A DNA stretch of 64,000 nt from Okamejei kenojei (Eukaryota): positions 42,904,001-42,968,000 of the forward strand of contig CM069140.1 in assembly GCA_035221665.1 (NCBI GenBank), given 5' to 3'. This document shows positions 4,618 through 64,000 of the stretch, in pieces. Below the pieces are notes generated by a model. That model was not told the origin of the DNA and did no database searches. It was given only the letters and a program-made list of their open reading frames with translations. The translations under genes were made by a program, and so were the position numbers. How positions within the stretch are numbered: position 1 is the first letter of the stretch; each line of letters starts with the position of its first letter.

Positions 4618-5274
4618 TGATTTGGGTTCCACCGATTACTGGGGTAGAAAATTCCAAAGATCCATGATCCTCAATGAATAAATTCCCCTTTATTACTGTC
4701 TTCAATAGATAACCTCTTATTCTTAAACGATGCACCCTAACTCCAGAATCCCCCATTGTATAACTGTAATCCAGTTCTATACATCTTAAACACAGGAAAA
4801 TTCCTCTCCATCTAATTTTGTACGTTTCAATAATTTGTATTGTTTCAATAATTTCAATGGTTTCAATAATTCATTAAAATTTGCATTGCTTTTCCCTTTG
4901 TGCACTAAAGGAGATGACCACAAATTGTTCTACAATACATTCCATCTGCCATGATCGTGCACACTCAGTTAACTTGTCCATATCCCCCTGATGATACTTT
5001 ACCTCCTTTCTACTTGCAACCTCACCTAGCTTGGTATTGTCAGACCAACCATTGAATACCGGGAAGATTAGCATTTGAACCCCGGTGCCAAATTATTGAT
5101 ATAGATAGTGTGTACCTGGGGCCTGAACATAAATCTACCTGGTTTTTTCAGTAGCCACATCCTGCCTATGTGAAAAGCAAAACCAAATTCTAATTTCATG
5201 TCATGTTTTATCGCCAATCTATGTACACTATTCTTATTTGACTAACTTTCTGTGGGTTTTTATGAACCACCGTA

Positions 5275-24381: not shown

Positions 24382-24733
24382 CCATTTCAAGCAGAGTGCA
24401 AGGTCACCAAATTCAAATCCATTTTCCTACCATTTCAAGCAGGGTGCAAGGCCACCAAATTCAAGTGCAGTTTCATACCATTTCAAGGAGGGTGCAAGGC
24501 CACCAAATTCAAATGCAGTTTAATACCACATCAAGCAGGGTGCAAGGCCACCAAATTCAAGTGCAGTTTCCAACACTTCAAGCAGGGTGCAAGGCCACCA
24601 AATTCAAGTGCAGTTTAATACCATTTCAAGGAAGGTGCAAGGTCACCAAATTCAAATGCAGTTTCATACCATTTCATGCAGGGTGCAACAACACCACATT
24701 CAAATGCAGTTTCATACCATTTCAAGCAGGGTG
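24382..24733. repeat. 48-bp minisatellite, ~7.3 copies
   Basis: Unit CCATTTCAAGCAGGGTGCAAGGCCACCAAATTCAAGTGCAGTTTCATA. Confidence 0.92.
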
Positions 24734-25103
24734 AAACCGTCATAAAGCCACACAAAACACCCTACTCACAGTTCAGTAGACATTCAGTATGTTCAGTTGA
24801 TTCACAGCTCAAACAGAGTTGTGACCTCTCCCTCCCATCATGCAGAGACTGAGCCACACCCATACTTCCAGATTTTATAATCCCTCCCCCTCCCACCGGA
24901 AAAGACGTGATTGACAGGAGAGAGATTCTCAACATTTTTTAAACACTAATAACATTTTTATTTTTCATTGATGCGGAAAAACCCTCTGCAGCTGATGAGC
25001 GGAGAGGGGCTGAGTAAGATGGCCAAGAATCACAGCTGTAAGTGGTAGTGTTTTATCTAAATTCAATATAGTGCAAACAGGAAGTTGTCAAGTTTAGCCA
25101 AAG

Positions 25104-25330
25104 TTTTGCACTGCCCTTTTACTTCAACCCAAAACCCCCCAAACAACCCTTTGCACTGCCTTTTTACTTCAACCCCAAACCCCCCCCCCCCCCCCCAAAC
25201 AACCATTTGCAGTGTCTTTTTACTTCAAACCAAAAACCCCCCAAACAACCATTTGCACTGTCTTTTTACTTCAACCGAAAAAACCCCCAACCATTAGCAC
25301 TGCCTTTTTACCTCAACCCAAAATCCCCCC
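25104..25330. repeat. ~45-bp tandem repeat, ~5 copies
   Basis: Unit TTTGCACTGCCTTTTTACTTCAACCCAAAACCCCCCAAACAACC. Confidence 0.85.
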
Positions 25331-25609
25331 ACCTCTCCCCCTCCCTTCCCACCCTCTCCTCGCCTCCCTTCCCACCCTCTCCTACCCTCCACCCCCTCTC
25401 CCTCTGACTCTTGCCCCTCTCTCTGCCCCCTCTCTCTGTCTCTGCCCCTTCTCGTTCTGCCCTCACTCTCTACCCCCCCCCCCCCGCCCCCAGAAGCGCC
25501 TGCCAGTTGGGGGCTATGCGTCAGTAGATAGGGCCGTTATGGGGTAAAAGGAGCAAATTAATATAATATCAAGGGGTAGTTAGCTTGTGTGTGTGATGCC
25601 GCATGCTGC

Positions 25610-26980
25610 CCCCCCCCCCCGCAATCCCATCCCCTCCACCTCATCCCTCCTCTTCTCTCCCCCCTCCTCTTCTCTCTCCCCTCCACCTTCTCTCTCTCCC
25701 CCTCCTCTCTCTCCCCACCGTCTCTTACCCCTCCTCTCTCTCCCCTCCTCTGTCTCCCCCTCCACTCACGCCTTCTCCTCTCTCCCCCTCCAATCCCTCT
25801 CCCCTCCCCACTCCCCATCTCCCCTGCCCTCTCTCCTCCATCTCTACCACCCTCTACCCCCCTTCCCCTCCACCCCCCTTCCCCTCCACCCCCCTCCACT
25901 CCCCATCCATCCTCCACCTCTTATTCTCCTCCCCCCTTCTCCACCATCCTCTCCTCTTATCTCCCCCTCCTCTTCTCTCCCCCTCCACCTCTCCCCCCTC
26001 CTCCTCTCCCCCTCCTTTTGTCTGCCCCCTCCAATTCTCCCCTCCTCTTCTCCCCTCCAACTCTCCCCCTCCCCTCCCTCCCTCCTCCTCTCCTCCTCCC
26101 CTCTCCCTCCCCCTCTACTCTCTCTCTCTCTCTCTTCCCTCTATCTCTCCCCGCTAATCTCTCTCCCCCCTCCGTCCCTCTCACCCCCTGCCTTTCCCCC
26201 ACTCTCCCTTCTCTCGCTCCCCCTTCTCTCGCTCCCTCTTCTCTCTGTCCCCCCTTCTCTCTCTCTCTCTCCCCCTTCTCTCTCTCTCCCCCTTCTCTCA
26301 TCTCCCCCCTCCTCTCTCCCCCCTCAACTCTCCCCTCCACTCTCTCCCCCTCTCCTCTCATCCCCTCCAATCTATCTCCTCCTCTCCCCCTCCACTCTCT
26401 CCTCCCCCTCCACTCTCTCCCCCCCTCCTCTCTCCCCCCTCCACTCTCTCCCCCCTCCACTCTCTCCCCCCCTCCACTCTCTCTCCCCCCCTCCACTCTC
26501 TCTCCCCCCTCCACTCTCTCTCCCCTCCACTCTCTTCCCCTCCACTCTCCCCCTCTCTCTCTCTCCCCCTCCAATCTCTCTCCACCTCTCTCTCCTCCTC
26601 CTCCCCTCCCCTCTCCCTTCCCCTCTCCTCTCCCTTCCCCTTCCCCTCCCCCACCATTCTCTTCCCCTACATACCCTCCCCTCTCTCCCCCCTTCCCCTA
26701 CCCCTGTCTCCCCCTTCACCCACCTCGTTCTCCTCCCCTCCCCATCCTCACCCCCCTCTCTCCCCCCTCCCCCCCCCCACCCACCTCTGTCCTCCACCCT
26801 CTCTCCTCCACCCTCTCTCCTCCCCCCTCTCTCCACTCCCTCTCTCTTCATCCTATTTCCTCACCCTCTCTCCTCACATTCTCCTCACCCTTCTCTCCTC
26901 ACCCCTCTCCCCATCTTCTCCCTCTCTCCCTCCTCCACTCCCTCCCCTCCTCCTCCCTCCCCCTCTCTCCCCATCCCCAA
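25610..26980. repeat. polypyrimidine/polypurine (C/T-rich) low-complexity tract
   Basis: ~1.4 kb almost entirely C/T on +, with internal CCCTCCACTCTCTC repeats. Confidence 0.95.
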
Positions 26981-27539
26981 ATTCAGTATTCCTAGCCTTT
27001 CAGCCTCAGATTCGTTCTTGGATTATTTCTCCTCTGTGCAAAATATACTGGTTAAAGGGACAATGTGTGGATTGTTTTCGAAGAGAAAAAGAGGCGGGTT
27101 TTCAAAGAGAAAAAGTAGGAGGTTTACTCCTGAGATAAGGCATCTGCTGTGCTATTTCACTGCTTGTATTTCTGGTATTGACAATTTTTTTCCTAGATAC
27201 AATTCCTTTTACAATTCTAGTAAAATGTTGCCTTTTTCCTGTCGCTTTATGAAAATGGGAAACTGATACAAAAAAAATGGATGTACAATTTAGGATCAGA
27301 ACAAAGTTCTTTATTATTCTGGGAAAAAAATGTTAGAAACACTCAACAAGGGAGGTAGCATCTGTGGAGAGAAGCAGTTAATTTCAGATCCAGGACCTTC
27401 ATTCACTTGACTTCCATCTGCAGTATTTTTTGCTTTTCTATTATTGCTCTGTGTTGTTAACAACAATTTACCACAGAAGATGAAAACAGAGAACATCAAT
27501 AGTCAGGAAATCTGTTAGAGCAAGCTTTTACGTGAGTCA

Positions 27540-35679: not shown

Positions 35680-37810
35680 AATTTATTGATCCCCTCAGGG
35701 AAATTCAGATGTCCAGAAGCCCCCAACCAACAAATCCACACATTCAAAACGAACGCAGACAGAAAAATACATAAAATACAATAAAATACAATGTGGACAC
35801 TACCTGAGAGCAATAAATACTTTAAAAAGACCAATAATTAACAATTAAAATTTAAAAAATCCAAAAATGCATCCCCCTACAGCCTAGTGAACCGAATTAT
35901 AAAATCTAATGGCTGCAGGGTTGAAAGATCTCCTGAACCGCTCCGTTCTACAGGGCAGGGAAAGGAGCCGGTTGTTGTTCCGAGTGCTCTGTTGACCCTC
36001 CAGAATTACATGGAGGGGATGCCCGGGGTTTTTCAGGATGACCTGCACCGTACGTCATATACGCCTCTCAAGCACATCCATCCCAGAGTCCACTCTCCCC
36101 TCCAGCACTGAGCTAGCTCGTTTAACCAGTTTGTTCAGTTTCTTGTTGTTTTTTGCACTAATGCTGTTGCCCCGGCAGAGAACAGCGTAGAAAGTGACAC
36201 TTGCAACCACAGTGTTGTAAAACATGTGCAGCATATCATTACGCACATTGAAGGATTTGAGCCTTCTGAGGAAAAAGAGTCTGCTCTGGCCTTTTTTGCA
36301 GAGGGCGTCAGAGTTGACAGACCAGTCCAGTTTATTATCCAGGTGCACTCCAAGGTATTTATATGTCTGCACCACCTCAATATCAGCCCCTGCAGCGTTG
36401 ACCGGCTGAAGGGGGAGCTTGGACCTGCCAAAGTTAACCACCATCTCTTTAGTCTTAGTTGTGTTCAGGATGAGGCAGTTCTCTTTACTCCAGGCACAGA
36501 AGGCACTGGTCGAGTTCCTGTATTCCTCCTCTTGCCCGTTCCGTACACATGCCACAATCGCTGTGTCATCTGAATATTTCTGTACGTGGCATGTGTCAGA
36601 TTTATGTCTGCAGTATACAGGGTGAAGAGGAATGGGGCCAGAACTGTTCCCTGTGGGGCTCCAACATTGCACACTACTGTCCCGGAAACACAGTCCCCCA
36701 GCTTAACAAACTGTGGTCGACCCGTCAGGTAGTTGTATATCCAGGAGATAAAGGTGGAGTCCACCCCCATCTTCTTAAGCTTGTCTTTCAGAATCAGGGG
36801 TTGGATGGTGTTGAACGCACTTGAGAAGTCAAAGAACATAATCCTCACATAGCCACCTGGTTCGTCCAAAAAGGAGTAAATCCGGTGCAGCATGTAGAGG
36901 AGTGCGTCATCCACCCCAATGTTCTCCTGGTATGCAAACTGTAGTGGATCTAGTGCGTGCTCGACTTGTGGTCTCAGGAGACAAATAAGTAGCTGCTCCA
37001 TTGTCTTCATGATATGGGATGTGAGGGCCACCGGTCTGTAGTCGTTGATCTCGGTCGGCCGCCCTGCTTTGGGAACCGGCACGAGACATGTTTTCCACAG
37101 ATCTGGTACCCTCCCTGACGGGAGACTCAGGTTGAAAATGGTCTAGAGAGACTCCGCCAGCTGAGCCGCACAGTCTTTCAGTAGCCTGGGACATACACCA
37201 TCAGGGCCAGCTGCTTTACCAGGGCGCAGCCTCCTCAGCTCAGCTCTCACCTCGTCCGCCGTGAAGAACAGTTGAGGAGATGCTGGCATGGGAGGTGCTG
37301 CAGCTGTGGTGTTGGGGCGGCTGCCTCGTGGAGGTGATGGTGGGGGAGAGGCTGCGCCTGTGGAGGTGGGAGGGGATACCAGGTCAAACCTGTTATAGAA
37401 CAGGTTAAACTCATTGGCCTTATCCACGTCTCATTACGGCAGGTTTCTCTTCTCCTTGAAGCCAGTGATGGTCTTCATTCCTCTCCACACCTCTTTGATG
37501 TTGTTCTGCTGTAGTTTCCTCTCCAGCTTCCTTTTATCATCCCCTTTTGCCTGCTTCATGCTCCTTTTCAGGTGGTGCTGTACCCTCTTGATCTTTTCCC
37601 GGTCACCAACCTTGAAAGCCTCCTTTTTCTCGTTTAGGAGGCTCTTGATGTTGCTTGTAATCCAAGGTTTGTTATTGGGAAAGCAACAAACAGTTCTTAC
37701 TGGCACAACAACATCCCTACAGAAGTTGATGTAGTCCGTTATGCATTCAGCCATCCTGTCGATGTCCATACTGCTGTTGAATTCCAGTGGCTCCATCAGT
37801 ATGTCTCAGT
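35680..37810 (-). mobile_element. Rex1/Babar LINE, 5'-truncated, frameshifted RT
   Basis: NDYRPVALTSHIMK, DPLQFAY, FFDFSSAFNTIQP, GAPQGTVLAPFLF, KYSDD, YKYLGV. Confidence 0.92.
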
Positions 37811-43432: not shown

Positions 43433-44013
43433 GATATATGTGTAAAATAGTAAGATTAAACGAGAACTTACCAGTTCGAAGTTTGATCGTTATTTTATGA
43501 GGAGTTACGATGAGGGATTACGTGAAGAACCCGCCTCACGCTGGCAAACGGCATACTTCAAAGCAGCGGCATGAAAAACACAGAACACCAAATAGCCGAA
43601 GTAACATAGTAAGGCTCATAATAGACTTAGAACTACCAGATTGATCATTTATTTTATGAGGGTGGGAGTGGAGGGAACGTAATCCCTCATCGTAACTCCT
43701 CATAAAATAACAATCAAACTTCGAACTGGTAAGTTCTCGTTTAATCTTACTATTTTACTTCGGAGTCACGTGAGTGACTACGTGAAGATTTTAAAGCTTT
43801 CTGTGTTTTTTATGTCGTAGAATTTAATCAGTACGACAGTCCGGCTAAGTAAATACATACATGAGAAACCAGACTAATATTAGTTCTTTCCATAATTAAC
43901 TTTTTAATGGTTTAAAGAACATATAATAACCCTCCTTATATCCGAGGGAATGATTACAAAGATAAGTGACTACATAACTGGTTATAGTAATCAATAGTAT
44001 ACAAAGCAGGTGA

Positions 44014-44985
44014 TTATATTGATCCCAACACCGCGTGGCCAAAGCTTGTCATAGTGTGAACAGGTTTATTGTAGAACTTTGAAAAAGTTTCTTCTTTACT
44101 CCACCCTGCGATTTTTAAAATATGCTCGAGTGGTACGTCCCGCACCTTCGCCGCGGACGTAGCTGCAGCCCTGGTGGAGTGAGATTTGAACACATCAGTG
44201 TCTACTCCTGCTAAAAGCAACACCTGTTTCAACCATTTTGAGATAGTTTGAACTGAAGCTTTTGTGTGTGGCTTTTTATGCGTAATCATTAACATTTTTT
44301 CATTTCCTCGAAGAGTTTCAGTAACTTTAACATATTGATTTAAATGTTTAACCACACACAAAGTAGGATCAATAGCATAAGCTTGAAAGGTTACCTTAGC
44401 TCCAGATCTCCCTGGTCTGCTTTGTTTGATCAGATCGTAAACATAGAACACAATGTTATCTATAGTCACATGCATACAGTCTAAACGCAACATTTGTAAA
44501 GTTTGCACTCTTTGAGCTGAAACCAATGACATTAACATTATTAATTTCAATGTTAATCTTTCCAATGACAATCCTTCAATTGGAGTCCATTGCCTAAGTA
44601 AGGTAAGTACAATGCTCACATCCCAAATCTCTGTGTACCTTGGTTTGGGTGGATTGATGTTAAAGATTCCTTTCATGAATCTAGATATTAATGGATGTGA
44701 TCCAATTGATTTCTGGTCAGACATTAGTCCTAAATAAGATGATAAGGCACTGCGTGCAGTGTTAATGGCACTGTAACTTAAATGTTGCTCAAAATGCAAT
44801 TTGGCAAGGAACTCCAAAACATTTGCAATATTCACAGTATCATAAGAAATATTTGACTGTGTGCAAAATTCTTCCCATTTCTTTATATGTGTCATATATT
44901 GTTTTTGTGTGCTATCTCGCCATGATGTGACTATAACTTCCATAATTTTGTCCGACAATCCCAGCTCCTGTAGTGGTCTGGTCAA
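44014..44985 (-). CDS. DIRS1 tyrosine recombinase (open frame, 323 aa)
   Basis: SAQRVQ (R), IKQSR (K), HSTR (H-x-x-R), AGW, FSKFY (Y); N-terminal SAM-like domain with YSAINTARSALS. Confidence 0.9.
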   Translation of the reverse strand: MTRPLQELGLSDKIMEVIVTSWRDSTQKQYMTHIKKWEEFCTQSNISYDTVNIANVLEFLAKLHFEQHLSYSAINTARSALSSYLGLMSDQKSIGSHPLISRFMKGIFNINPPKPRYTEIWDVSIVLTLLRQWTPIEGLSLERLTLKLIMLMSLVSAQRVQTLQMLRLDCMHVTIDNIVFYVYDLIKQSRPGRSGAKVTFQAYAIDPTLCVVKHLNQYVKVTETLRGNEKMLMITHKKPHTKASVQTISKWLKQVLLLAGVDTDVFKSHSTRAAATSAAKVRDVPLEHILKIAGWSKEETFSKFYNKPVHTMTSFGHAVLGSI

Positions 44986-45029
44986 AACCTGCAGATTAAT
45001 AAATTCATATATGCATATAATGGATAAAT

Positions 45030-46860
45030 TTATTTAGTTACTGGATTAATCAAAATATCACTACAGTTAGGAATTGACATATATGGTTCTTTAATCATAT
45101 TCAGCATTAATGGGAACCAAGGTTGTGTTGGCCAATTTGGAACTACCAACAATCCAGTGGCAGAATCTTGTTCTATTTTCTTCAGACATTTCTGAATCAA
45201 AGCAAATGGTGGAAAAGCATAAAAGAACATATTCCCCAGTTCAATGAAAAAGCATCTACTGCTACTGCATCTGGATCGTGTTCCCAAGACACATATTTAG
45301 GCAATTGATGATTAAGCCTTGATGCAAACAGATCAATTTCTGGTAAACCAAATTGGGTTACAATATTCTTAAATATTGCTGGATTAAGCATCCATTCTGT
45401 GTTATCTTTAAATATCCTTGATCTTTTATCTGCCACCACATTGTCTTTACCTGGAATGTAATTTGCTGAAATCCAAATTTGGCGGTCAATACACCATTGC
45501 CATATTTCATTGACCAGACAATCACATGATACTGATCTAACTCCCCCCATGTGATTAATATATGCAACCGCCGTTTTATTGTCTAACTGTATTAATACAT
45601 GTAGACCCTTTTTTGAACAACAATATGCTTTTAGTCCATAGAAAGCACCCAATAACTCTAAATAGTTAATACCATAAGTTTGAAGAAACATTTCTTCTTG
45701 AACTTTCCATCTACCTCCACAACTGGAGGATGAATCTGTTGCCCCCCATCCGAGAGCACTAGCATCTGTTTGTAAAACCATTTCAGGCTGTTTAATCAGA
45801 ATGTTTTTAGCAGCTTGTGGGACATTTTTAACCCACCATTGTAATTCCAACACAGCTTCTTTTGTTAATTGCATAGGCCTATCAAAGTGGCCTGCCTTCT
45901 CTTTGAGAGCTCTTATTTTGTCCCTTTGAAGATTTTGATAGTGTAATGGACCAAATTCTACTGCAGGAAATGCTGCTACTAGTTTACCAATGGTTTTCGC
46001 TACTTCTCGGATGGAAGGATAAGGTTTGTGAATGAGATTATTACAAGTTACCAAAATATCATCAACTTTTATCTGTTGGTAAAGTTACTAACATAGTCAC
46101 TGAATTAATTACAAACCCCAAAAAGTTAATTGATTGTGCTGGCTGCAGCTGGGACTTAATTGGATGAATCAAGAACCCTAGCTTTTCAAACAAAGCTTTA
46201 GTAACTGAAACTGAGTTCTCACCTGACTCTTGATTATCATTAATGATTAGAATGTCATCGAGATAAGCCATAACGATGTGTTTTTGTGCTCTTAATTGGG
46301 CTAAGACTGGTTTCAACAGTTTCGTAAAGAGCCTGGGAGCTGAACTCAGTCCATTTGGCAAAGCTTTAAACTGCCATAATTGTCCCAGCCAATTAAATTT
46401 TAAGTACCTCCGGAAACTCTGATGTATCTTTTAAATCAATCTTAGCCATATAACAACCTGCTGAAATTAAATATCTTACAGTATTAAATGTTTCCATTTT
46501 AAAATGTTTGTATTCTACAAACTTATTTAGATCTGTAAGGTCCAGAATAATTCTGCAACCACCATCTTTTTTATTTCTCCGAAAAATGTTAGAGACAAAT
46601 TGATGCTCGTGTTCATAAGTTTTTTCAATTACCCCTTTTCCAGATAATTTGTCAATTTCCACATTAATCTCTGCTTTATCAATAGCAGTAAACACGAAAG
46701 CGTAAGCAGGTCTATTCTGTACAGGCGGATTAACCCCTTCTTTAAATGTAATAGTGGCTCCTGAAACTGCTTGTAATATAAATCGATCAGAAGTAATAGT
46801 AAGCCAGTCTTTATAAAACTTTTGTAATCTCCCTCCAACTGGAGATTTATCCGCAGTTTC
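45030..46860 (-). pseudogene. DIRS1 pol (RT, RNase H, adenine-methyltransferase-like), frameshifted
   Basis: PVGGRL, IILDL, IDLKD (following AYY motif lost, frameshift), LPNGLSSAPRLF, YLDD, TDAS..GWG, INYLEL, DNKTAV, DLFAS and YAFPPF, split over four ORFs. Confidence 0.9.
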
Positions 46861-48096
46861 TTTAAGGATAAAACAAGTCTTTAATACCTCTCCATATGAG
46901 CGTGGTGGTCTCCTTCTCCCTGAATATGGGTAAGCATTGGGCTGTGCCGGACGATAATACTTCCTTGACAAATTTCTGCCTCTATTTCCAAAGTCAAAAC
47001 CCCTTCGGGGCGAAAAATATCTTTTTTGTCCAAAGACGAAAGGTTTCACACCGCTAAAATATTTAGCTTCTTCATCCAACTCTTTCAGTTGTTTAGGCAG
47101 ATTTTCTCCAAACAGATACCCAGGAGCTTGAACACCACTTGCTCGACACAGGCTTGCAAATCTAGGGTGAAATATGGGCCGAATCGCCATTTTCCTCATA
47201 CAGTTAATTTCATAGAAAGAATTGCACAATAAGCCCAAAGTATCTTTTTGAATCTTATCCATCTCCAATCTCTCCATTTGTCTCCCATAGGCCGTAACGG
47301 CAGCAGAAATTAGTTTGAGGGTTTTTTGAAATCTCACTTCTTGAGCTCTCATACTTGGAGTCATGGATGTCCATATCAACGGATTAACCGTAGGCACTTC
47401 CAATGAGGCACAATTTCCTGGTGTCTTATATAATTCTGATGTTTCAATCATCACAGAATCTTGAAGTTGGTGAGATACCATATAATTAATACTGGCAGCT
47501 AGGTTTTCTTCCATAGCCTCACCACTTCCTTCAGGTATAGCAAATTCTTTTGCTATCCCAGGCACATTTGGCCTTTTCTTTTTATTTTGTGGTGTGCATT
47601 CAAAATCCAAATCACCACCAGCAGGGTCTGCCTTCTGCAGCCCTAAATCAATTGGGATTTCACCCCATGAGACTTCTTCCAGCCCAAATCCTGGGTCCGG
47701 AGTTTCAAACTCCCAACTTGGCACACAGCCATATTCAGAATAATCAAACCCCTCAGAGCTTTTTTGGGATCCTTCTGGGTTCTGTGACCCTTGTCTCATG
47801 ATTTTTTGGAGAACTTTCTCCATATGCTCCATTTTTAACCACATAGTTTTATTATCTGGAGGACTTTCAGTATCAGAGTCATCAGAAACCACGGGCCTCT
47901 CAGATTTCTTTTTACATTTTTTAGGAGCATTTCCCTCCGTGGTTATTATTGCTGGAGAATCTAGAAACTCGCTATCGGGTATATCAGCGGCCACCGGTAT
48001 CGGAACCGGATCCGCACTAGCTTCTTGTCCCGTATTTTTATTTTCACCCCGGGAAGATCTTTTTACCCGCGAATTTCTCTTTGCCGATTTCTCCAT
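46860..48096 (-). CDS. DIRS1 gag-like ORF1
   Basis: First ATG at 48096; PGNC..L.VP.VNP.IW and LFGENL motifs of DIRS ORF1. Reads through in frame into pol in this copy, so the gag/pol boundary is approximate. Confidence 0.7.
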
Positions 48097-48974
48097 TTTC
48101 TTTATTATCAGTGCTAAATCAGCACGTTTACGCGACTCTGAATTTTTACTTTTACTTTCGCTTGCTGGGCCCACCCAGCGTACGCTAAAAAACATCCCGA
48201 CTTTGCTGCACTTACCTGCGGGGCCGTTCCGACCGCTGCGAGGAGCTGCTCCTTACTGCAGCTCCTCCTTCCGCCGTCAGCGTCGACGTAATGCCGTTTG
48301 CCAGCGTGAGGCGGGTTCTTCACGTAGTCACTCACGTGACTCCGAAGTAAAATCAAAATAGTGCAGAACATGGAGGGGAAACTTTAGGTTATAATACAAA
48401 CACAAAAGGCTGGGAAACCAGCAGCTCAGGCAGCATCTAGGCAAAGAGAGACAATCAATGTTTCAGGCCCGTCACAGCGCTGAATTGTAGACTGTTTATC
48501 TTTCCACAGATGCTGCATACCTACTCAGCATTTTCCATTTTTTTATTTCAGCATTCCAACATCTGCTGTTCTTTTAAAAAAAAAATGTCAACATGAATGG
48601 AGTGGTGTTTTCCATCACCTGCTATGCTTGACCTTGGTGGAAGAGGTTGAACATTTTGGGAATGCTGTCAGGTTATGATTTGATTATTTCAGAGATGGTG
48701 TTTAGATGAATAGTATTAATCACTATAATAGAATTATTACTTTGGATTGCTCTCTCACACAGTGTGTTAAATTGAATAACACTGCTAGTTTAAGTGCTGT
48801 CTCTCAGTCTCCACAGCAAAATTTGCCAGTATGGCAGACATACTTTGGTTTTGAACCTTACCTCTTGGGGGAATTGCAATCAAACTTCTCAATGTTTTTG
48901 CTTGGTGGGAACACCAAAATGTAATGGTCCGTCTGTTGAATATTTTGACTACGAATCAAAAATAAAAGAGCTAA

Positions 48975-49208: not shown

Positions 49209-49793
49209 CTATATCCTATTTAATTGAATTCTTTGAAGACAGACTTGCCAGTTCATCTAATTACTGATTACATTTTATGGGGAAATAGAAATAGATGGCG
49301 ATCATCTGACCCTCAACCTGTGTTTTACTCTTCATTTTGATCATAAATTGACTTCATCCTCTTGCTTTGGCTTCAAATTTCATAATACAATTAAACCACT
49401 GATTTTCCCCCAACTGATGGTAACTCCTTTAATCTGGACAAAATTATGAGAGCGCGCTTTAAATTTACTGGGTGGACATAGACGGAATTGCATGTGGCAT
49501 GTGCTCATTTGGGACATAAGCACCTGTCTCAAAAGAGTTAATTGTTTACATCTGCAGTTGTTGGCGGTGATCTCTTGGTTTTGTGTGATTCTCAGCTTAT
49601 TTTGATTACATTTAACCCTAGCTATGGGTTTGAAGCAAGATCCAAATGACTGATGAGCTTAAGTACAAGTCCATATCAATACAAGACAAGGGAGAACTGT
49701 TGAAGCAACTCGACCGTGGTGTTTCCGTGCGGAAACTGTGATGTGAATGTTTTAGGTTTGTAAACTGTTTACGATATAAGAAAGCAAAGAGAC

Positions 49794-52270
49794 TGTTCTC
49801 ACACTGGTTAGGGTATAAGCATCTTTAATGTTCAGCTCATCATCACATAAGCAGTACATCATCAAACATTCAGTCTACTGCAGCTACTGAAGACAGTATA
49901 AAGCATGCATTAGGCGGAGTTATAATTACTAAGCATTCTGATTGGCTAACATGCAATAGCCAATCTACATCTCTTCTTGTAGAAATTAAAAAGCAACTAA
50001 GGCACTTTAAACGGTAAGCTGAGGGAATAATAGTAGGGTTAAACAAAATCGGCATATCTAATGGGTGGCCTACTAACTCGCCCGGTCCTCATGCGGAAGG
50101 CGGCCTCATTACCCATTTCTTCCGAAAAGATGGGGGCTGGGGTAGGTAATACCGTGGGCCTGTGGGGCGAGACCGCCGTGGGGGAACCGACGCGGGGAGC
50201 CCGGGGTACCGGTAACAACAGGAGACGCAGGGGCAGACCGCCGTGGGGAGTGGGCAGACTTGGCCGCAGCAAGTGGTGGAACAGCTGCAACAGGCGTTGG
50301 TGTGAGCACAAGCGGTGGGGCATCAGGACCCGGGGGCGCCAGAAGAAAAGGGTAATTAGGCCCCCTTCCGCACGAAGACTGGGCGGGTTAGCAGGCCACC
50401 CATTAGATATGGTGATTTTATTTAAACCCACTATTATTCCCTCAGCTTACCATTTAAAGTGCCTTAGTTGCTTTTTCTTGGTGGTTACGACCATGGTGGA
50501 GACCCAGTCAGAGGATTCGCTGACCTCGGCAATGGCTCCATTGGAGACCATGCATTTAAGTTTGGCGTGTATTTTCTCCCGCAGGCCATGGGGCCGCGGT
50601 GGGGCGCGAACTATTGGTGTTACAGCATGATCTACAGTGATCTTGCATATCGTAGGCAGCTTGCCAAGTTTGTCGGCAAACAGGTCTTTGTACTGGGATA
50701 GCATCTGCTGTGTTGGTTCCTCTGTCAGGCAGAGTTTGTGGACAGCACTCCCGAAATAAACCAGCCCCAGGTCAAGGCATGCATTGATGCCAAGCAGGGT
50801 TTCAGAGTTAGGTTGGACAATGTAAAACATCAGGTTTTTATTTAGCTCGTTGACGATGCATTTTAAATCAGCTTTATCCAATTCCCCGCCGTAGGCATGT
50901 AGGGTGGAGGAGTCCTTTTTCATTAGTTCAGTGGTCCTTATCTTGTTGAACTCCCTGAGTGACATTACGTTCACCTTTGCACCAGTGTCGACCATGGCGG
51001 TCATAGCCTTGTTGTTTATTACCATGGTCACCGCAGGATCCAGTAGCTTGCCAGAGGAGTGCAGGAGGGACAGCACGGCTGAGTAGTTGTCTGTGTTATC
51101 GGAATCATATTCGTGGGAAACATTGTCTTCCTCTTGGGATAAGAGTCAGGCAGCTCTTGTTGAAGCAGGTGCAGATTTGTCCTTGAAGCAGTGTTCCCAC
51201 GAGATCGACAACATGTGGTAAAATGATTAAGCTTCTTGCAGTTGCAACAAACTTTCCCATGGGCGACACAAAACTGGCGCCCCCTAGAGTGGAAATAATT
51301 GCAGTTGGGGCACCTTGTGGCAGGCATATTGGGATCATTGCGAGACGCGTTTAAGAATTTCTGCGGAGAGTAGTTAGCTAGATTTACGTTATATTGCTGT
51401 TGAGGGCTGGCAGGGTCAAAATCTGCTAGTGGAGCCACGGTCTCTGCCATTCGACACGAATGAGTGGCTTGTTCTAAAGTCAGTTCAGCATTCCGAAGCA
51501 GTTCAGCTCTTAGCTTGCGGTCGCTCATTCCTCCCACAATTTTATCGCGTACAAGCTCGTTAGTCAACTCACCGAAGTGGCACCATGTAGCCATGTGTTG
51601 TAAATCGCTGATAAATCACTCGACAGGTTCATCGATCTGCTGCTGTCGGGCGAAGAATCATGTTCTCTCGAGGATGCGGTTCGAGGGCAGTTTGCATAGT
51701 TCTCTAAACTTTCCCAGTAGGACCGTAGGATCGATAGTTTCAGCTGGCACCAGGACCTGACCATTCGCATCAAGGTGTGCTGGGGCGAATTCAAAGTTAT
51801 CTGCACGAATCATTGCTTCCGGACCCGCTAGATTGAGTAGTAGCGATGCCTTCAGATTGTCGTGATCGTTCCAGTGAACAATGCGGATATAGTGAGCATA
51901 GCCACGCTCAAACATTCGCCAACGCTCGGCTATGTCAGAATCAAACACAAGGGGACTTGGCTTTCAGCAGGAGTTGGCCATGTCGTCAAAATCAATCACA
52001 AATAAAAACTGATAAAAGAAAATAAATCGCAATTAACAGACGAGGGTTGGACCCAGTTTTCTGTCACCATGTAAGCACCTCACTCTCAAACTGGTTAGGG
52101 TATAAGCATCTTTAATGTTCAGCTCATCATCACATAAGCAGTACATCATACATTCAGTCTACTGCAGCTACTGAATACAGTAGGCAAGTTCTTACACTAT
52201 AAAGCATGCAATGGGCAGAGTTATAAATACTAAGCATTCTGATTGGCTAACATGCAATAGCCAATCTACA
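49794..52270 (-). mobile_element. non-autonomous Gypsy LTR retrotransposon (gag + protease only)
   Basis: LTRs 52070-52270 and 49794-49969 (TGT..ACA); PBS TGGTGACAGAA (tRNA-Leu-like); PPT AAGAAGAGA; gag with CCHC-like knuckles; protease VDTGA; RT, RH and IN cores absent; short (A)GAC target duplication. Confidence 0.9.
50447..51981 (-). pseudogene. Gypsy gag-protease pseudogene
   Basis: ATG 51981, early stop and frameshifts; FGELTNELVRDKIVGG, CCNCKKLNHFTTCC, AMVDTGAKVNVM; RT start SDWVSTMVV then truncated. Confidence 0.85.
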
Positions 52271-52939
52271 GACAAAATAATGAAATTCGTTGCAGGCAGT
52301 GAGTCGAAGAAGCAAATGAGCATTCGAAAAATCATGAAAGATGGTAAGAGTGCTGAGCACGATCAAGTGATGATGGAATGTTTTTGACAATGTTCTTAGT
52401 GATGGAGTGGACTTGTCGGGTAGCATGTTAATAGACAGACTAAGTTATTCCATAAAGAACTTAAATTACAACATGAGTGTGACTATAGTGAAGGATGGCT
52501 TTAAAGGTTTAAGATACGTCATGGAATTTGGTCCATCTGTTGTTCCAGCAAAATGGATTATCCGGCAAGACTCTGGAACCAAGGGTGCGAGAAAATCGGT
52601 GGCGTACCTGTAATCCTAACAAAAATCTGATCAAAGCCAGGTTTGAAATGTTTAATTAAACGAGCTACAATGGCTTTTTTTGGGAAAGGTGTTCCAGATT
52701 TTCTCACCCCCAATTGACCTAGTCCCTATTTTAACATAATGATCTCTTGCTCAGAAATAATGAGGTGAAATTCTTTATGATTTGTTTCATGCAAGATATT
52801 GTATAATCATGTCGAAGTATCCTATTTATTTTTCTTTCATGTGCTCCTCAAGATTATCCTTGAGTTGATTTTGTTGATTTCAACCACTCCCTGTGGTAGC
52901 GAGTTTCATATTCTTAAATATATATCTGGTTAAATAATC

Positions 52940-54168
52940 TTTTTTTTTTGTAAAATATTTTTATTAGAAGTAATTACATATTAAGAAATAATATAAGATC
53001 AAAGACAAAGAAAAAAATATTATCGTCACATAATTCTTAATATTTTAAACTTTTACAGTCACTCTTATCTATACTTCAATATATATATTTTTTATTTTAT
53101 AACAGTAGGAAATAGGTAATAAAGAGAAAAAGAGATAAAAAGAGATAACTTAATGAGTGGAGTATTAAACAAGATATTCTTCATTGGAGATATATTCATG
53201 ATCTATTGTATATAATTCTTCATCTATTCATTCATTCAGGCTTCAGTCATGGACTCGAACCGGACCATCTTAACCCTTTAAATATTCAATAAATGGAGAC
53301 CATATTCCTCTGAATTGATCCAACCTGTCCATCAGGACAAGTCTTAGTCGTTCCAGATGAAGTGTCTCCGACATTTCTGTAATCCATATTTTAATTGTAG
53401 GGGAAATGGGACCTTTCCAAAATCTTAGTATAAATTTTTTACCAATTATTAAACTATAACCAATAAAAATTATTTGTTGTGTTGTTAATATCTGATTCGT
53501 TTCTAGTATTCCCAATATGATTAATTTTGAATCTGGAATTAAATTAGCATTAACTACAATTGAGATTATTTTAAACATTTCCATCCAAAAATTAGTAATT
53601 TTTATACATTTTGTAAATAAATGCGTTAAATTAGCTTCTAATTGTTGACATTTATCGCATATCGCGGAAACATTTGAGAAAATTCTATTTAATTTAGATT
53701 TTGAGAGATGTAATCTATGTATAACTTTAAATTGTATCAAGGAGTGTCTGGCATTTAATGAACAGTGATGTATATGTTGTAAACTTTCATTCCATACTTC
53801 TCTACTAATTACTTGACCTAATTCGTTTTCCCATGCTTGTCTATATTTATCCGTATTTGGTAGATCATTTTCCAGAAGATATTATAGATATATGATATTA
53901 ATTTTTCTGTATTCGGATGTTTATTTAGACATTCATCTAAAATTTCTGTCTTTCTATTCCTAAAATCTATTGTATTTGATTTAACATAATCTCTAATTTG
54001 TAGATATCTAAAATATTCTTTGGAATGTAATCCATAATTTTGTTGTAATTCCTGAAATGAGAAAAATAAACTTTCCCTGTAGAGATCGCCAATCTTATTT
54101 ATTCCATAGTTCTTCCATTTTAAAAAACCTTTATCCATCAATGAAGGTTTAAAAGAAATATTGTTTAC
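52940..54168 (-). mobile_element. L1/Tx1-clade LINE, 5'-truncated
   Basis: IQFKVIHRLHLSK..ICDKC..HLFTKC..WSPF; poly-T at left; TSD TATCTGGTTAAATA (52923-52936, 54169-54182). Confidence 0.85.
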
Positions 54169-54231
54169 TATCTGGTTAAATATCTGAGTTTCCCATTGGA
54201 TTTCCCAGTGATTGTTGTATGCATAACCCTC

Positions 54232-54530
54232 GCGGCAGCATGGTGATGCATCTGTTGCCTCACTGCTCCAACAGGTCATGTTCAATCCTGATCATTGACA
54301 TTGTCTGTGGGAAATTTGCAGGTTCCCCTTGTGACAACATGGGTTACCACCCACATCACAAGGATGTGCAAGTTAGTAGATTAAGTGGCTGTTGAAATTG
54401 GCTCTAATGCAAATGAGTGGTAGAATCTGGAGGGAACTGATGTGGATGGAGGGGGAAATAAAATTGTGTTAGTGTAAGTAGGTACCTGATTGCTAGTATG
54501 GACTCAGTGGGTTGAAAGCTGAGTTCGATG
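54232..54530 (+). mobile_element. degenerate HE1-like V-SINE
   Basis: GGCAGCATGGTG..GTTGCCTCACTGCTCCA..GTTCAATCCTGA head and CCCACATC.CAAG V-domain. Confidence 0.6.
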
Positions 54531-57216: not shown

Positions 57217-57284
57217 TAGGAACTGTACTTTCCAATTAAGTGAAGCACTATTCTTGACATTGTAGTTTGAATACCTGATTTCAA

Positions 57285-58807
57285 ATCATATAACCATATA
57301 ACAATTACAGCACGAAAACAGGCCCTCTCGGCCATTCCAGTCTGTGCCGACCATTTGTTTTCCCCTAGTCCCATCTACCTGCACTCAGACCATACCCCTC
57401 CATTCCCTTCCCGTCCATATACCTATTCACTTTACTTTTAAATGTTAAAATCAATCCTGCCTCCACCACTTCTGCTGGAAGCTCATTCCACACAGCCACC
57501 ACCCTCTGAGTAAAGAAATTCCCCCTCACGTTACCCCTAAACTTCTGTCCCTTAATTCTCATGTCATGCCCTCTTGTTTGAATCCTCCCTACCCTCAATG
57601 GGAAAAGCTTATCCACGTCAACTCTGTCTATCCCTTTCATCATTTTAAAGACCTTAATCAAGTCCCCCCTTAACCTTCTGCGCTCCAAAGAATAAAGACC
57701 TAACTTGTTCAACCTTTCTCTGTAAGATAGTTGCTGGAACCCAGGCAACATTCTAGTAAATCTCCTCTGTACTATTTTGTTGACATCCTTCCTATAATTA
57801 GGTGACCAAAATTGTACACCATACTCCAGAATTGGTCTTACCAATGCCTTGTACAATTTTAACATTACCTCCCTACTCCTATATTCAATGCTCTGAATTA
57901 TAAAAGGCCAGCACACCAAAGGCTTTCTTTACCACCCTTTCTACATGTGATTCCACCTTCAGGGAACTATGCACAGTTATTCCTAGATCTCTCTGTTCCA
58001 CAGCATTCATCAATTCCCTACCATTTACCATGTATGTCCTATTTTGATTTGTCCTGCCAAGATGTAGCACTTCACACTTATCAGCATTAAACTCTATCTG
58101 CCATCTGTCAGCCCACTTTTCCAAATGGCCCAAATCTCTCTGTAGACTTTGAAAATCTACTTCATTATCCACAACACCGCCTATCTTAGTATCATCTGCA
58201 TACTTACTTATCCAATTTTCCACCCCATCATCCAGATCATTGATGTACATGACAAACAACAGTGGATCCAACACAGATCCCTGAGGCACCCCACTGGTCA
58301 CCGGCTTCCAACCTGACAAACAGCCATCCACCATTACTCTCTGACATCTCCCATTCAGCCACTGTTGAATCCATCTTGCTACTCTGCCATTAACACCCAA
58401 AGATTGAACCTTCTTAACCAACCTTTCATGGGGAACCTTGTCAAAGGCCTTATTGAAATCCATATAGACAACATCCACTGCTTTACCCTCATCAATTTCC
58501 CTAGTAACCGCTTCAAAAAATTCAAGGTTTGTCAAACATGACCTTCCAGGCACAAATCCATGTTGACTGTTCCTGATCAGACCCTGTTTATCCAGATGCT
58601 TATATATATTATCTCTAAGTATCCTTTCCATTAATTTGCCCACCACTGATGTCAAACTAACAGGTCTATAATTGCTAGGTTTATTCTTTGAACCCTTGTT
58701 AAACAATGGAACAACATGCGCAGTACGCCAATCCTCCGGCACTATTCCTGTTTCTAATGACATTTGAAATATTTCTGTCATAGCTCCTGCTATTCCTACA
58801 CTAACTA
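57285..58807 (-). mobile_element. CR1 (HER1-like) LINE, RT and 3' end
   Basis: NYRPVSLTSVVGK, QHGF, VYMDFNKAFDKVPH, GVPQGSVL, YADD; one frameshift at ~57900; ends abruptly at ~58807. Confidence 0.93.
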
Positions 58808-59099
58808 ACAAACCATCCTTTGTCAGTTTAAATAATGATGCCTTTCCTAATTTTGTCAATGTGACGTCATTAGATACCAATTCGAGATGGTATCCATGAT
58901 TTTTTTTTTTTTCCTTTTCCATTTCCTAATCTATTTATATTGAAGATAATCATAGCCCATCATTGTTAAGAGCTTTTCAAACTCAAATATTGGCCACAAG
59001 TTTGAGGTTGCCAAAGAAGAGCAGGTACTTACCATTCATCATAAAGTAAATGCCCAACAAGCTTTCAACAACTGGAAGTGGTAATTTTTTTATCCAAAT

Positions 59100-62000
59100 G
59101 CCCTTATGGAAACCCGACACGACCCACCACACCTAGGTAGACACCGAGACAGTACACCCCACCTCCCAGAATAATACAGGACAGCCACGCATACCCCCAG
59201 CACCATCCTACTATAGGCGCGTCATACGGTGGCCCGCGCCCACCACGCAGGAACACACCCCAAACCTATCCCCAGATCAAATCCCCCACCGTCAATACTC
59301 CCCCACCCCCTAATTCTCAGCCGCCCATAACAACCCGCGGATACCCCATCCCCCAGCCCCCCATCCCACAACCCCATACCACAACCAACCACCCACCCAC
59401 GGCATCCGGCGCTCCAAAAAACCCAAAAAAAAACCTATCAGGCCCCCCATCACCCACTTACCTCCCAATTTCGCCGCCTCACGTAAAACTTCATCATTCA
59501 ATTCCCGTCCTCCCCCCCTGCCCATAGCCCACCAACCTTTCTCCTCCCCCCTTTGTATCTCACCCGTTCATCATCCCCCCCCCCTCCCCCATCACCCTTC
59601 CTCCCTACCCCCACCCTCCCCATTCCCCAAAATCACCCGCACAACCAAACCCCATCTACACCCCCCCACAGTCCCTCCCTCCATTAACATAAAAAATCGC
59701 TCCAAAACCAGTTAAATTCGAACCCTTCAGGCTATATATACATTTCAGGTGGCCAACCATAATCCCTAGGTCCACAGGACCACAGTCCAATCGTCAGCTT
59801 TGCCCCACCTGATACCTGCTCCACAAGCCAAAATTGCTTTCCCCAAGCACCCCAGTTTTACCCCACCTTTATCCCGCAACTACCTAAACCCCTTCCTCCC
59901 ATTCCCCACCACAAATAACCCATCCCCCCTACACATATTTAGCTTTCCCGCTGTGCATCCTTCATCTCCCACCCCCCCCTCCTCCCTACCAATCCCAATT
60001 CCAACGTATTATCCCATTTCGCCCACTTCCAATTTCACTATTACCCATTTCCACTTCCTCAATCTTCCACTCCACCTATAATATCCCTTCCATTACTAAC
60101 CTCGGCCTTGCCCTCCTACCCCGATCCTCCCCCATAGTAATTACCATACCCCACGTTCAATTCTAGGTTAGTCTCACCCATCCCTCCAACAATGATTCCA
60201 CCCTTCCCGTCCATCTTATACACCGCCTCCTCCTCTCCTCCCACGCCGCCCCGGTTAAAATTCTCCTCTGTTCCCTCCATTTATTCTCCCCCTCCGCCAT
60301 CCCATGGCCCCTGCGACCCATACGCCCCATCCCCCATCTGCCACCAACTAATTACTTACCCTTCCCATCCCAATATTGGACATTTCCTAGCACCTAATAC
60401 AACCCCCCAGCTGTGGCTCCCCGACTCCGCCCATCCATACTAAAAAAACCCTCCCCGCCCACCACCTCCATCCTAAATCACCATCCGGGCATCCCTCAAG
60501 CCGACTCAAACGCCATGGCCCCACCACCGAAACGACCGCCCCCTCAACGTTCCTAAAGGTTCGTTCCCATACCACCAAGCCCCATCATTCTCTTAGTCCC
60601 AATTCCTCTCTAATATCAAAACTCCAAAACACACCAAACCTGTTCCTGTCTACGTCCCCAATCCCCCCCCACCCCCCCATAAACACCCATACAAAATCGC
60701 ACCCCATAACCTTTTCTTCATCCCGCCCCCCCCACACTCGCTCACTCCACCACTCCACCCCTGCCAATCCCACCTCCTAAAACACCCAGAGGTGCAGCCC
60801 CTGAAACAAGTCTTCCGATGGCCATCCTCCCCCTGCCTATAATCCCTGGGGGGACCTATCCACGACTATATCTCGCTCGTACCCTCCCGCCATGTGAAAT
60901 CCACCACCAAGGAACCCCCTGCCCTGTACCGTTTATTCTTTCAGCGCCGACATCGTGCTACCCCTCGTTTCTATGTTCCCATCTCCCTGCTTCCCTGCAT
61001 CTTCCCTCATATTCATTATTTATGCTCACCGACCCAATCCCCGATTCTGCCGCATCTGGTCCCCTTCAATATTAATCCTTACGCGTCCACTATTCCAACC
61101 CCTAACCGTCCACCTTCCATACCCCATAAAATAGCTTCGCGCGGATTATTAGCTTCCCCTCCGACCCCTCCAGCCGCTCCTTAACACAGACCCAACCCCT
61201 GTGGAAACTCAACACCCATTGCACCTCCTTGAAACGCGGGCCCATCTCCCACTGCCGACCCAAGTCCAGGCCCCCCTCCCGCCCACTTGAGGACCCCAAC
61301 ACAAGGCTTCCAATCACAACAATCTCATCACACACATCTCAACCAGCCCATAAAATAGAGGCCCCATGGGGTACGGGCCGGGGGGGCCTCAGGAATGTGT
61401 ACTCATTGAAAAGTGCTGTCCACAACCACCCGCCCCAGAAACAGTCCTACACTGACCATAACCGACTAACAACATCCCACACCTCCCACCATATACTAGT
61501 TGTATTGCCCGCCCCCACTCGAATCACCCCGTGCTGCAAGTAACACCATCAAGGGCAGGAATGAGGATAAGCACACCACCGCCGCTCCATGCCCTTCCAA
61601 CCATACACCCTCGAACCCAATTCACCTGATCAATCCCACCCCCATCCACGTACCTGTCCCAAATACCCAACCAAATCTACACGGGGCTCTCTGAAAACCG
61701 CACCGCCCCCTGCCCTACATCCCAATCTTACCCTGGCAACCCACATTATGCCACCATCTCACGAACCCCTCTTACAACAGCCACCCACCACACAGCCCAC
61801 CCTCCAATAACCTCACCCCAGCCCAATAAGACACCCCCACGACCATGACCTATACCAATACGACCATGCCACACACAACCACTTCCACAACCTAGACCAT
61901 ACCCCGCGCCCCACAGCACATATTCCCCCCAATCCCCCAAGGCTTTACCCAAAAACCCACACACCCCGAAGCGACCCGCAACCCCCGACATCGACACGGA

Positions 62001-64000
62001 CCTGAACCATCAAGCCCCACGCTGCCGCAGCTCCCCCTCATTATTCACACCACATGTACCATATCCCCACCACTAAAAATGCCACCACACACCCTTGTCC
62101 AGCGCCTACCTCAACCCACGCCCCACGCCTTGCCCCACTGACTCCCTCCACACCAGCAATCAATAACATCCAACACCGCCTCTCCAGGCTACGGGCCCCA
62201 CCCACAACCAAAACCCCAAAACCAGAAACCATCGCCACCACACCACTTTCCCCCCTGCCCTGCCTCCAGACTACGCACCCCAATTAGGCCGTTGAACCCC
62301 ACTCATAGTCCCGCATTAAAAGATACTACAATTTCCCACCAGACCGACCACCCCCTGAAGGCCCGAATCATTCCACACCCCCACCTTGTACCCAGCCAGA
62401 GAATTGCCGGCCGGTCCGGGGCCTCCAGTACCCGACTTCCATGCCCCCTAATATCGCGCATACTGGAACCTAACTGGATCCAAAACCTACGCCTGTTACC
62501 CGACAAGTTCCTGATAATGGTCCAACCAAGGCGCCAATACCACACCTTTAACTAAATTACATGCTCTCTGGCAATATCCTTAGCCCCTTTGCTCAATTGA
62601 CCCACATCCATTGTAAGTCCTGGTATAGCCTTCACACTGTCAACTATACCACTAACTTTAGTGGCCATCGTGCAGACATATGAAAGATGGAGAATCTAAA
62701 GTTCAAACCATCGAGTAGTAAACCCCCAACATTATACTAAGATTATCTCAGCCCTACCTTAACACCAGATGCAAACGTTACTCCGCAGTGGCCAAGACAC
62801 ACCCGAGATAATAAACCCTATGTGATACGCCATCCATGTATCCACACCACAAACTCCCCACCATCAAGAAACTCATCATACCATTACCCCCCAACACTCC
62901 CAAACCCAGCCCATCATCCCAACACACATAACACCACCAACGAAATGCTAATCCTAACATCTCAACCAACCTCCTGTATTAAACCATCTCATTAGCCTCC
63001 CCCTTGAGACTATAGACATACCGCCCTCCTCGTTGTCTTGGGGTTGAACCCCCCCAGGCCCAGAACCAAACGAACAAAGAACCACCACCTTTCAACCAAT
63101 GTGAATAAACTCCCCAATTTTCTAAAACCAACAAGCCCCCATCGCACACATCCAGGAACTTGGGGGTCAGGGGGGGGGCATCCCTCACATCCATACCCCG
63201 AAACCAGCCCATCATCCCCTGCCCCCTCACTCCAATATGCTCTCACAGTCCTCACCCTACGTCAACGGCACAAATAAAAGCCCTACTCTAACACACCCCC
63301 TTCCAAAAAAAAAACCACCACTGCCACCCCCCCAGGCCCCACGCCCCGCCCTATTCATCCCCACAAACTCACTCACCAATCCCAACGACCCACACCCTCC
63401 TGCCCATAAACAATATCACGGAATTAAAATCCGTTCCCACCAACGCCAGCACACATCATATACCCCCAAAATCGTCCCTTCAGATTACCGACTTACCCTT
63501 ACCCCCAAACCAAACAAACCCTCATCATCCCACGCCCAATACTCCTACCTGCCTGACCGCCTTTCCCCTCTTCCCTGGCCCATCAACCACCCCTCAGATT
63601 TACCATCATGACCACACTGGCCATCACGGAGACCCAACGCCATCCCGCAGCCCCCACCAACACAAGGACCCGTCCCTCGATTCATGCCCGCCCCACCCCC
63701 CACCCAAAACCACCCCCACCCCTCCCAAAAACCTCACCCACACTCCCCCAGTTACCACATTTACACCCCACTCCAAATCAATTATTCCTCCCACACGCAC
63801 GACAAGAAGGCCACAGTGATGCATCTCTAATTTTTGGGTACCCTGGCCCTCCCAACAACACAGCCCCTCATGCCTCCAAACTCATACTAACCCTCCCCAA
63901 TCTGATTCAATACCCCCATTACATCCACGTTACAGCCTCTTACATAAACCACCAACCGCAAAACACTAAAACCTAAAAAACACAACCCCCGCATCAGCCT
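59100..64000. other. C/A-rich, G-poor featureless sequence, probably low-quality assembly
   Basis: Strong C-over-G skew, irregular C runs, no periodicity, and none of the repeat families that fill the rest of the window. Confidence 0.6.

Follow-up and report, generated by a model that had tools for sequence, protein, structure and literature searches.

The question raised by this locus is how a Ty3/Gypsy retrotransposon came to carry an inverted copy of its own 3' end where most of its pol gene should lie, and whether the long hairpin predicted for its RNA serves the element, its host or neither. In the window (the whole 64-kb stretch of DNA analyzed), a single copy of the element occupies the minus strand from 52270 to 49794 (2477 nt, ~2.5 kb), and it is a decayed derivative of a Ty3/Gypsy LTR element that still has its LTRs, PPT and PBS-like site and is bounded by a target-site duplication. 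The 5' LTR (52070–52270, minus strand, 201 nt) has TG...CA ends and aligns with a 3' LTR of 176 nt (49794–49969, minus strand) that is without 17 and 11 nt of its partner and has 3 nt more elsewhere; the pair differs by 6 substitutions over 173 positions and by the three indels of 17, 3 and 11 nt. The PBS-like site (52052–52069, minus strand), read from the sequence, starts with TGG directly behind the 5' LTR, and nine purines (49970–49978, minus strand) abut the 3' LTR as the PPT. An earlier note on this DNA had the LTRs, PBS and PPT as retained, and so we find them, the PBS being this PBS-like TGG site and the PPT the nine purines. The 64-kb window contains no tRNA gene with which the PBS-like site could be compared. 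The PBS region (52053–52068) is also complementary at 88% over 16 nt to the gag knuckle region (51262–51277), which may be chance.

The flanks belong to another transposon. On the left, a decayed start of a pogo/Tigger-like transposase with a CENP-B_N-like HTH (49634–49793, plus strand) is recognized by Atlas features that match CENP-B_N clusters at 0.93, and on the right, translations and frame continuity mark a further decayed transposase relic (52271–52627, plus strand), which we take to be the other part of the same host element on the strength of that continuity and of a presumed likeness to pogo/Tigger transposases. Pfam and PDB scans of these short pieces gave no significant match. The trinucleotide GAC at 49791–49793 recurs at 52271–52273 as a target-site duplication of 3 nt (4 nt counting the terminal LTR base 52270), and since this duplication is present and its codon is the point from which a host reading frame continues on the far side of the element, we conclude that the element arrived in one clean insertion.

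Its coding capacity has not survived. The gag relic (51142–51981, minus strand), delimited by tblastn of the protein record P0002, the open reading frame list and Atlas features, shares 81% identity with P0002 over 281 aa, and residues 1–280 of P0002 have Atlas features matching Gag/zf-CCHC clusters at 0.96. It has two Cys/His knuckles, one canonical and one with atypical spacing, and is interrupted by three in-frame stops (51964–51966, 51658–51660 and 51616–51618). A frameshift near 51140 separates gag from the downstream frame (50477–51139, minus strand), which Pfam and relatives identify as an aspartic protease (about 50783–51028) followed by the start of RT; P0002 has gag and protease in one frame. 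The protease frame matches Pfam gag-asp_proteas at E=6.6e-6, just below its cut-off, and is 76% identical over 80 aa to the Amblyraja radiata record P0001, relative to which it shows a 4-codon in-frame gap; this likeness suggests that the host is probably a cartilaginous fish. Because gag has three stops and a frameshift, no intact gag-protease remains, and the designation of the locus as a "gag-protease-only element" does not hold for a coding unit. As a side observation, P0001 is a gene model named "helicase SKI2W-like" whose residues 1–80 are 80 aa of this Gypsy family's protease, probably through a mis-joined annotation or an exonized retrotransposon piece.

The relatives of the protease frame, of which a search at E<=0.001 returned 2094 library proteins (at least 150 of them, the matches listed, were used), define what the element has lost. 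P0001, P0002 and P0003 (76–84% identity) show that the family itself is dispersed, but they do not extend as far as the junction described below. Full-length relatives are ~1300 aa long with the Gypsy domain order, and in all three of those scanned (P0009, P0031 and P0059) the part matching the protease is followed by RT, RNase H and integrase in that order. The two knuckles in gag fit Mag-like elements and also Micropia/Mdg3; according to the accessible part of one source, two CCHC arrays are usual in Mag elements and common to Micropia/Mdg3 too (PMC2577118), and the Mag clade is a lead only, since the feature is shared.

At the RT motif WVSTMVVTTKK, the relatives and the element part company. 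Among the matches listed, 94 of the 119 relatives with this motif continue into the RT core, and the closest one that spans the junction, P0006, continues TTKKNKEELRFCINP, whereas in the element the motif runs directly into an inverted arm. Beyond it follow, in order, 135 nt that are the reverse complement of the 3'UTR and pol tail, 219 nt of Pro/Ala-rich sequence in sense orientation, and then the native tail with its stop, the 3'UTR and the PPT; the earlier note was thus right that the element's integrase tail and 3'UTR stand, inverted, in the place of pol. The missing part of pol amounts to about 718 aa (range 598–797 across 17 single-ORF relatives), or ~2.2 kb. The relatives' proteins, from which alone the parental codons can be read, point to a putative 5-A microhomology at the RT-side junction, between the parent's K-K-N codons and the first five bases of the inverted arm; it would concern that junction only, as the second junction has none demonstrable from the present sequence.

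The resulting fold-back is long and simple. The inverted copy of pol tail and 3'UTR (50342–50476, plus strand) would form the 5' arm of the hairpin in element-sense RNA, and the native pol C-terminal tail and 3'UTR (49988–50122, minus strand, stop at 50039–50041) its 3' arm. In the latter, the encoded end of pol, ..TGRVSRPPIRY.DF., is similar to that of full-length relatives, and on this similarity we identify this arm as the native copy. Each arm is 135 nt long; the two differ at 14 of 135 positions (9 transitions, 5 transversions) without indels and are 90% complementary across a 219-nt spacer. In the element-sense (minus-strand) RNA 6 of the 14 differences are G-U pairs, against 3 of 14 in the antisense (plus-strand) RNA, and the 5 transversions disrupt pairing on both strands. 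Direct comparison of the arms thereby bears out the geometry first noted by eye, down to the 14 mismatches and the six sense G-U pairs, and the GC-rich loop put at ~220 nt proves to be 219 nt with 68% GC (50123–50341, minus strand). From its position and the relatives' tails, this loop is likely a Pro/Ala/Ser/Thr-rich integrase-tail linker in sense orientation. A structured loop is ruled out, the loop alone being no more stable than expected by chance (z=-0.13, with 91 of 200 shuffles as stable). A short imperfect palindrome (50112–50134) lies across the inner end of the native arm, exactly at the start of the inverted copy, and could be an RT pause or a fold-back aid.

Folding of the element-sense RNA, a check which the earlier note had proposed and which we ran, predicts one long stem (MFE -297.2 kcal/mol, z=-20.4, none of 100 shuffles as stable). 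Fold-back inversions are known in long-read libraries according to the accessible part of one source (PMC13722937). An assembly or library fold-back artefact is scarcely credible here: the 14 differences between the arms are all substitutions, biased to transitions, the arms enclose a 219-nt unique loop, and a second junction leads into RT, and these arm differences, loop and RT junction together are not a read-error pattern.

Long inverted repeats are not rare in the window, since two others, of 82 nt and 293 nt with short spacers, are present in the same 64 kb, both at other transposons. The longer, at 13047–13952, has arms of 293 nt that match perfectly (100%) and flank a core of 320 nt. 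The frame of this core (13276–13623, plus strand) has a YIGET..R.L..R motif reminiscent of GIY-YIG; Pfam and PDB scans gave no significant match. The whole is likely a Penelope-like fragment, very young and bounded by inverted terminal repeats. The other belongs to a DIRS1-like tyrosine-recombinase retrotransposon (43442–48345, minus strand) with frames of 619, 122, 295 and 339 aa and matches to RVT_1 (E=2e-15) and Phage_integrase (E=2e-7), in which an internal segment (43677–43790) is complementary to both ends, 82 nt of it at 99% to the left end; this element looks young. Elsewhere in the window, a 492-nt dispersed repeat occurs at 4133–4624 and 57282–57773 in opposite orientations and 97% alike, the second copy adjoining an RVT_1 frame (57885–58925), and the two are likely young LINE ends. 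LINE relics lie at 36055–37142 (RVT_1 and an ALKBH8_N-type match) and 53270–54291 (a weak zf-RVT match), a 48-nt tandem array at 24335–24784 and a long C/T-rich low-complexity tract at 25300–27000, and the terminal 5 kb (59000–64000) are strongly C-skewed.

If the hairpin worked as RNA, the differences between its arms might be expected to carry a mark of it. The proportion of G-U pairs gives none: any transition in a perfect duplex yields a G-U pair on exactly one strand, so that the 9 transitions divide 6 against 3 as chance would have it (binomial p=0.25), and we reject the G-U bias as a mark of selection. A folding preference for the sense strand is likewise rejected on energy, the two strands being equally stable (sense -287.7, about -288, versus antisense -291.2, about -291 kcal/mol). 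Nor are the G-U pairs a product of A-to-I editing on the present evidence, for editing could fit at most 6 of the 14 differences, and the two arm changes that can be polarized are both of C-to-T type, not A-to-G. Another candidate, an inverted arm derived from a different active subfamily under coding constraint, is not supported, as the tail frame differs at 4 of its 18 synonymous sites and at 7 of its 63 nonsynonymous ones (p=0.25; dN/dS about 0.5) and the inverted arm contains a stop in that frame. The tail motif T-R-S-G-R, seen in 12 of 26 long relatives (with T in 11 and R in 9 of these 12), is informative here: in translation each arm retains one residue of the motif that the other lacks, from which we conclude that both arms have drifted.

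Some features of the stem could be read the other way. The longest uninterrupted helix is 50 bp in the sense RNA versus 24 bp in the antisense, the outer 47 bp of the stem contain only 1 difference, and the arms are free of indels where the LTRs have three, all of which we counted against an origin by template switching followed by drift. They are within chance given 14 events, yet they are no evidence against function either. There is no sign that the hairpin has been kept for a function, and the functional role suggested for it, in packaging or as a source of small RNAs, finds no support in a G-U share of 6/9 (p=0.25), in strands that fold equally or in a synonymous bias that is not significant.

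This bears on two readings in which the hairpin is useful. In one, the copy would belong to a non-autonomous family mobilized in trans by its full-length parent, the hairpin being selected for the element through packaging, dimerization or RNA stability. The retention of both LTRs, the PBS-like site, the PPT and the target duplication is what such a family would show, as are the indel-free stem with its 50-bp uninterrupted sense helix and an interior that, by two weak clocks described below, appears older than the LTRs. We nonetheless regard this reading as very unlikely, given a broken gag and G-U and energy biases that do not exceed chance; a long duplex beside the PPT is moreover expected to hinder reverse transcription and to attract dsRNA sensors. 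The junction peptide was found in 0 of 151 stored relatives among the matches listed, in a set of clustered protein predictions that cannot count genomic copies, and none of 122 candidates, likewise clustered protein predictions, matched at E<=0.1 the 135-aa ORF that spans the second junction; because of the nature of these sets, both negatives weigh little against the family.

In the other reading the host would have retained the locus as a "killer," its hairpin RNA giving rise to small RNAs that silence the parent family, by analogy with Mu killer and MuDR in maize. Once transcribed, a stem of 135 bp that is 90% paired and corresponds to the 3' end of the parent would offer a Dicer-type enzyme a substrate. 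The differences between the arms have a neutral look, however, Rfam has no match at E<=1 in 49700–52350, and endo-siRNA silencing in vertebrate tissues is limited, and we give this possibility an equally slender chance. Hardly better placed, and improbable in our estimation, is the combination of the two, a dispersed non-autonomous Gypsy family of cartilaginous fish carrying a 135-bp hairpin against its own autonomous parent as a mobile "killer" or defective-interfering element. If it were true, the element would spread by means of its parent's machinery and at the same time supply small RNAs directed against that parent, and a multi-copy family or a small-RNA source of this kind would be a self-propagating silencer made from an LTR element in a vertebrate.

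The comparison of the arms with the LTRs dates the inverted copy relative to the insertion. The arms differ at 10.4% of positions (14/135) versus 3.5% (6/173) for the LTRs, a ratio of 3.0 (95% CI 1.1–9.5, p=0.019); without CpG sites the figures are 9/121 versus 5/171 (ratio 2.5, CI 0.8–9.7, p=0.096), and with indels counted as events 13/135 versus 9/176 (p=0.18), so that the ratio spans 1.9–3.0 across counting rules. The AT-rich UTR part of the arms (3/51) is not different from the LTRs (p=0.43). The three gag stops point the same way as the raw arm divergence: in a simple model of neutral change, with rates assumed for transitions and CpG sites, the LTR clock predicts 0.65–1.15 stops (P(>=3)=0.03–0.11), whereas the arm clock, which the stops fit, predicts 1.7–2.9. 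The LTR clock is itself shaky, because 4 of the 6 LTR substitutions cluster within 17 nt, just before the 17-nt indel, which suggests a conversion patch or two template RNAs and not even decay. This comparison, proposed in the earlier note, leans weakly to that note's side (raw ratio 3.0, CI 1.1–9.5; 2.5, CI 0.8–9.7, once CpG sites are left out). As arms and stops both exceed the LTR clock, the interior may be older than the insertion, in which case the deleted form would have been re-copied in trans at least once, or the inverted piece would have come from a co-packaged sibling RNA; arms at least as diverged as the LTRs fit an origin at or before insertion.

These dates weigh on the most serious alternative to an error of reverse transcription, namely that a full-length element inserted, that its pol was broken later, and that the repair, through microhomology-mediated joining or a template switch in replication, brought in an inverted insertion templated near the breakpoint or in another copy. 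Such DNA repair is marked by a deletion together with microhomology and a short templated insertion in inverted orientation, and the observed geometry fits it equally well. With a local template, however, repair predicts arms younger than the LTRs, and they are more diverged by the factor of 1.9–3.0; an ectopic, diverged template would rescue the model. Repair also leaves unexplained why the inverted copy ends just before the PPT, which reverse transcription does not. We consider a post-insertion rearrangement unlikely, while granting it appreciably more weight than either use of the hairpin.

We therefore favor, with reasonable if incomplete confidence, a double template switch during reverse transcription, an event of the "deletion with insertion" type, as the source of a defective copy that has likely drifted without function since. 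Read in the order of the nascent minus strand, the element consists of LTR, PPT, UTR, tail, loop, a backward copy of UTR and tail, RT, protease and gag, the expected product of fold-back copying by RT. Further support comes from the position of the source of the inverted copy, which lies 219 nt inside the retained tail, and from the base of the arms, which is separated by 18 nt from the 3' LTR and by 9 nt from the PPT.

The steps may have been as follows. Minus-strand synthesis would have copied the 3' LTR, the PPT, the 3'UTR and about 350 nt of integrase tail. The growing end would next have come off the RNA and found a new template in single-stranded minus-strand cDNA, either its own or that of a co-packaged sibling, along which 135 nt were copied back toward the PPT. 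At 9–14 nt before the PPT, synthesis would have stalled against a template made double-stranded by the RNase-H-resistant primer and plus-strand DNA; the T-run end would then have paired with an A-run (T5/A5) in the RT coding RNA, skipping ~2.2 kb, with normal completion to the PBS. Parent-encoded integrase would finally have put the product into the pogo/Tigger relic. The hairpin would on this account be a by-product, and read-through RNA, if there is any, would fold. Within the template-switch reading, an origin in the very event that produced this insertion is slightly the better supposition, and an older copy, later re-copied in trans, comes close behind it; the roughly threefold divergence of the arms relative to the LTRs and the three stops were counted against the former and fit a re-copied deleted form. 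If the template-switch reading holds, the once-identical inner arms can be used for dating in addition to the LTRs, and the point just before the PPT at which the inverted copy ends shows how far fold-back synthesis came before plus-strand priming blocked it.

Several known systems resemble parts of this element. The plant TR-GAG elements, as the accessible part of their description has it, are multi-copy, up to 4 kb long and equipped with LTRs, PBS, PPT and a gag ORF, and by definition without similarity to protease, RT, RNase H or integrase (PMC4350172). Our element is likewise shorter than 4 kb (2477 nt), keeps its LTRs, PBS-like site and PPT, retains part of gag and has lost most of pol. 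It differs from TR-GAG in that protease and the RT start are present and gag is not open, with its three stops and frameshift, and the internal inverted duplication is its own feature. Template switching is also described in a sugar beet survey devoted to non-autonomous LTR elements (PMC13570524, accessible part), and term counts in its main text give no "hairpin," "antisense" or "inversion" (PMC13570524). More generally, the literature that we searched, largely at title and abstract level, in main texts and outside most subscription journals and the repeat databases, describes no LTR family with an internal hairpin in place of pol.

Mag-like single-ORF gag-pol elements resemble this family, in which P0002 has gag and protease in one frame; the two Cys/His knuckles, one of them atypically spaced, would fit as well. 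Unlike such elements, this copy has no RT core, RNase H or integrase core. Hairpins derived from transposable elements can silence homologous elements, as the accessible part of one source states with reference to Slotkin 2003 and 2005 (PMC11624286). The likeness to Mu killer of maize lies in a deleted transposon derivative with an inverted duplication, able to form a long hairpin homologous to the autonomous parent; as far as the accessible sources describe it, Mu killer derives from a DNA transposon and has demonstrated transcription, small RNAs and silencing, whereas the present hairpin is a prediction from DNA sequence.

Retroviruses provide the nearest parallel to the proposed origin. A 1990 study by Pathak and Temin is said to be a source on retroviral deletions with insertions. 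Intramolecular template switches give such "deletions with insertions" (PMC3187697, accessible part), and among individually sequenced HIV-1 proviruses, the accessible part of another report has one with an inversion and a large deletion, and 26 of 88 with asymmetric LTRs, mostly through 3'-LTR deletions (PMC9278108). These retroviral products are fresh somatic proviruses, whereas we deal with an old, decayed germline Ty3/Gypsy copy for which reverse transcription is the proposed source; what it shares with them is an internal deletion, inverted self-derived sequence, intact ends and asymmetric LTRs, the 3' LTR being here without 17 and 11 nt. On this reading the element is a fossil of a reverse-transcription error, a useful detail for students of transposable elements rather than a new system.
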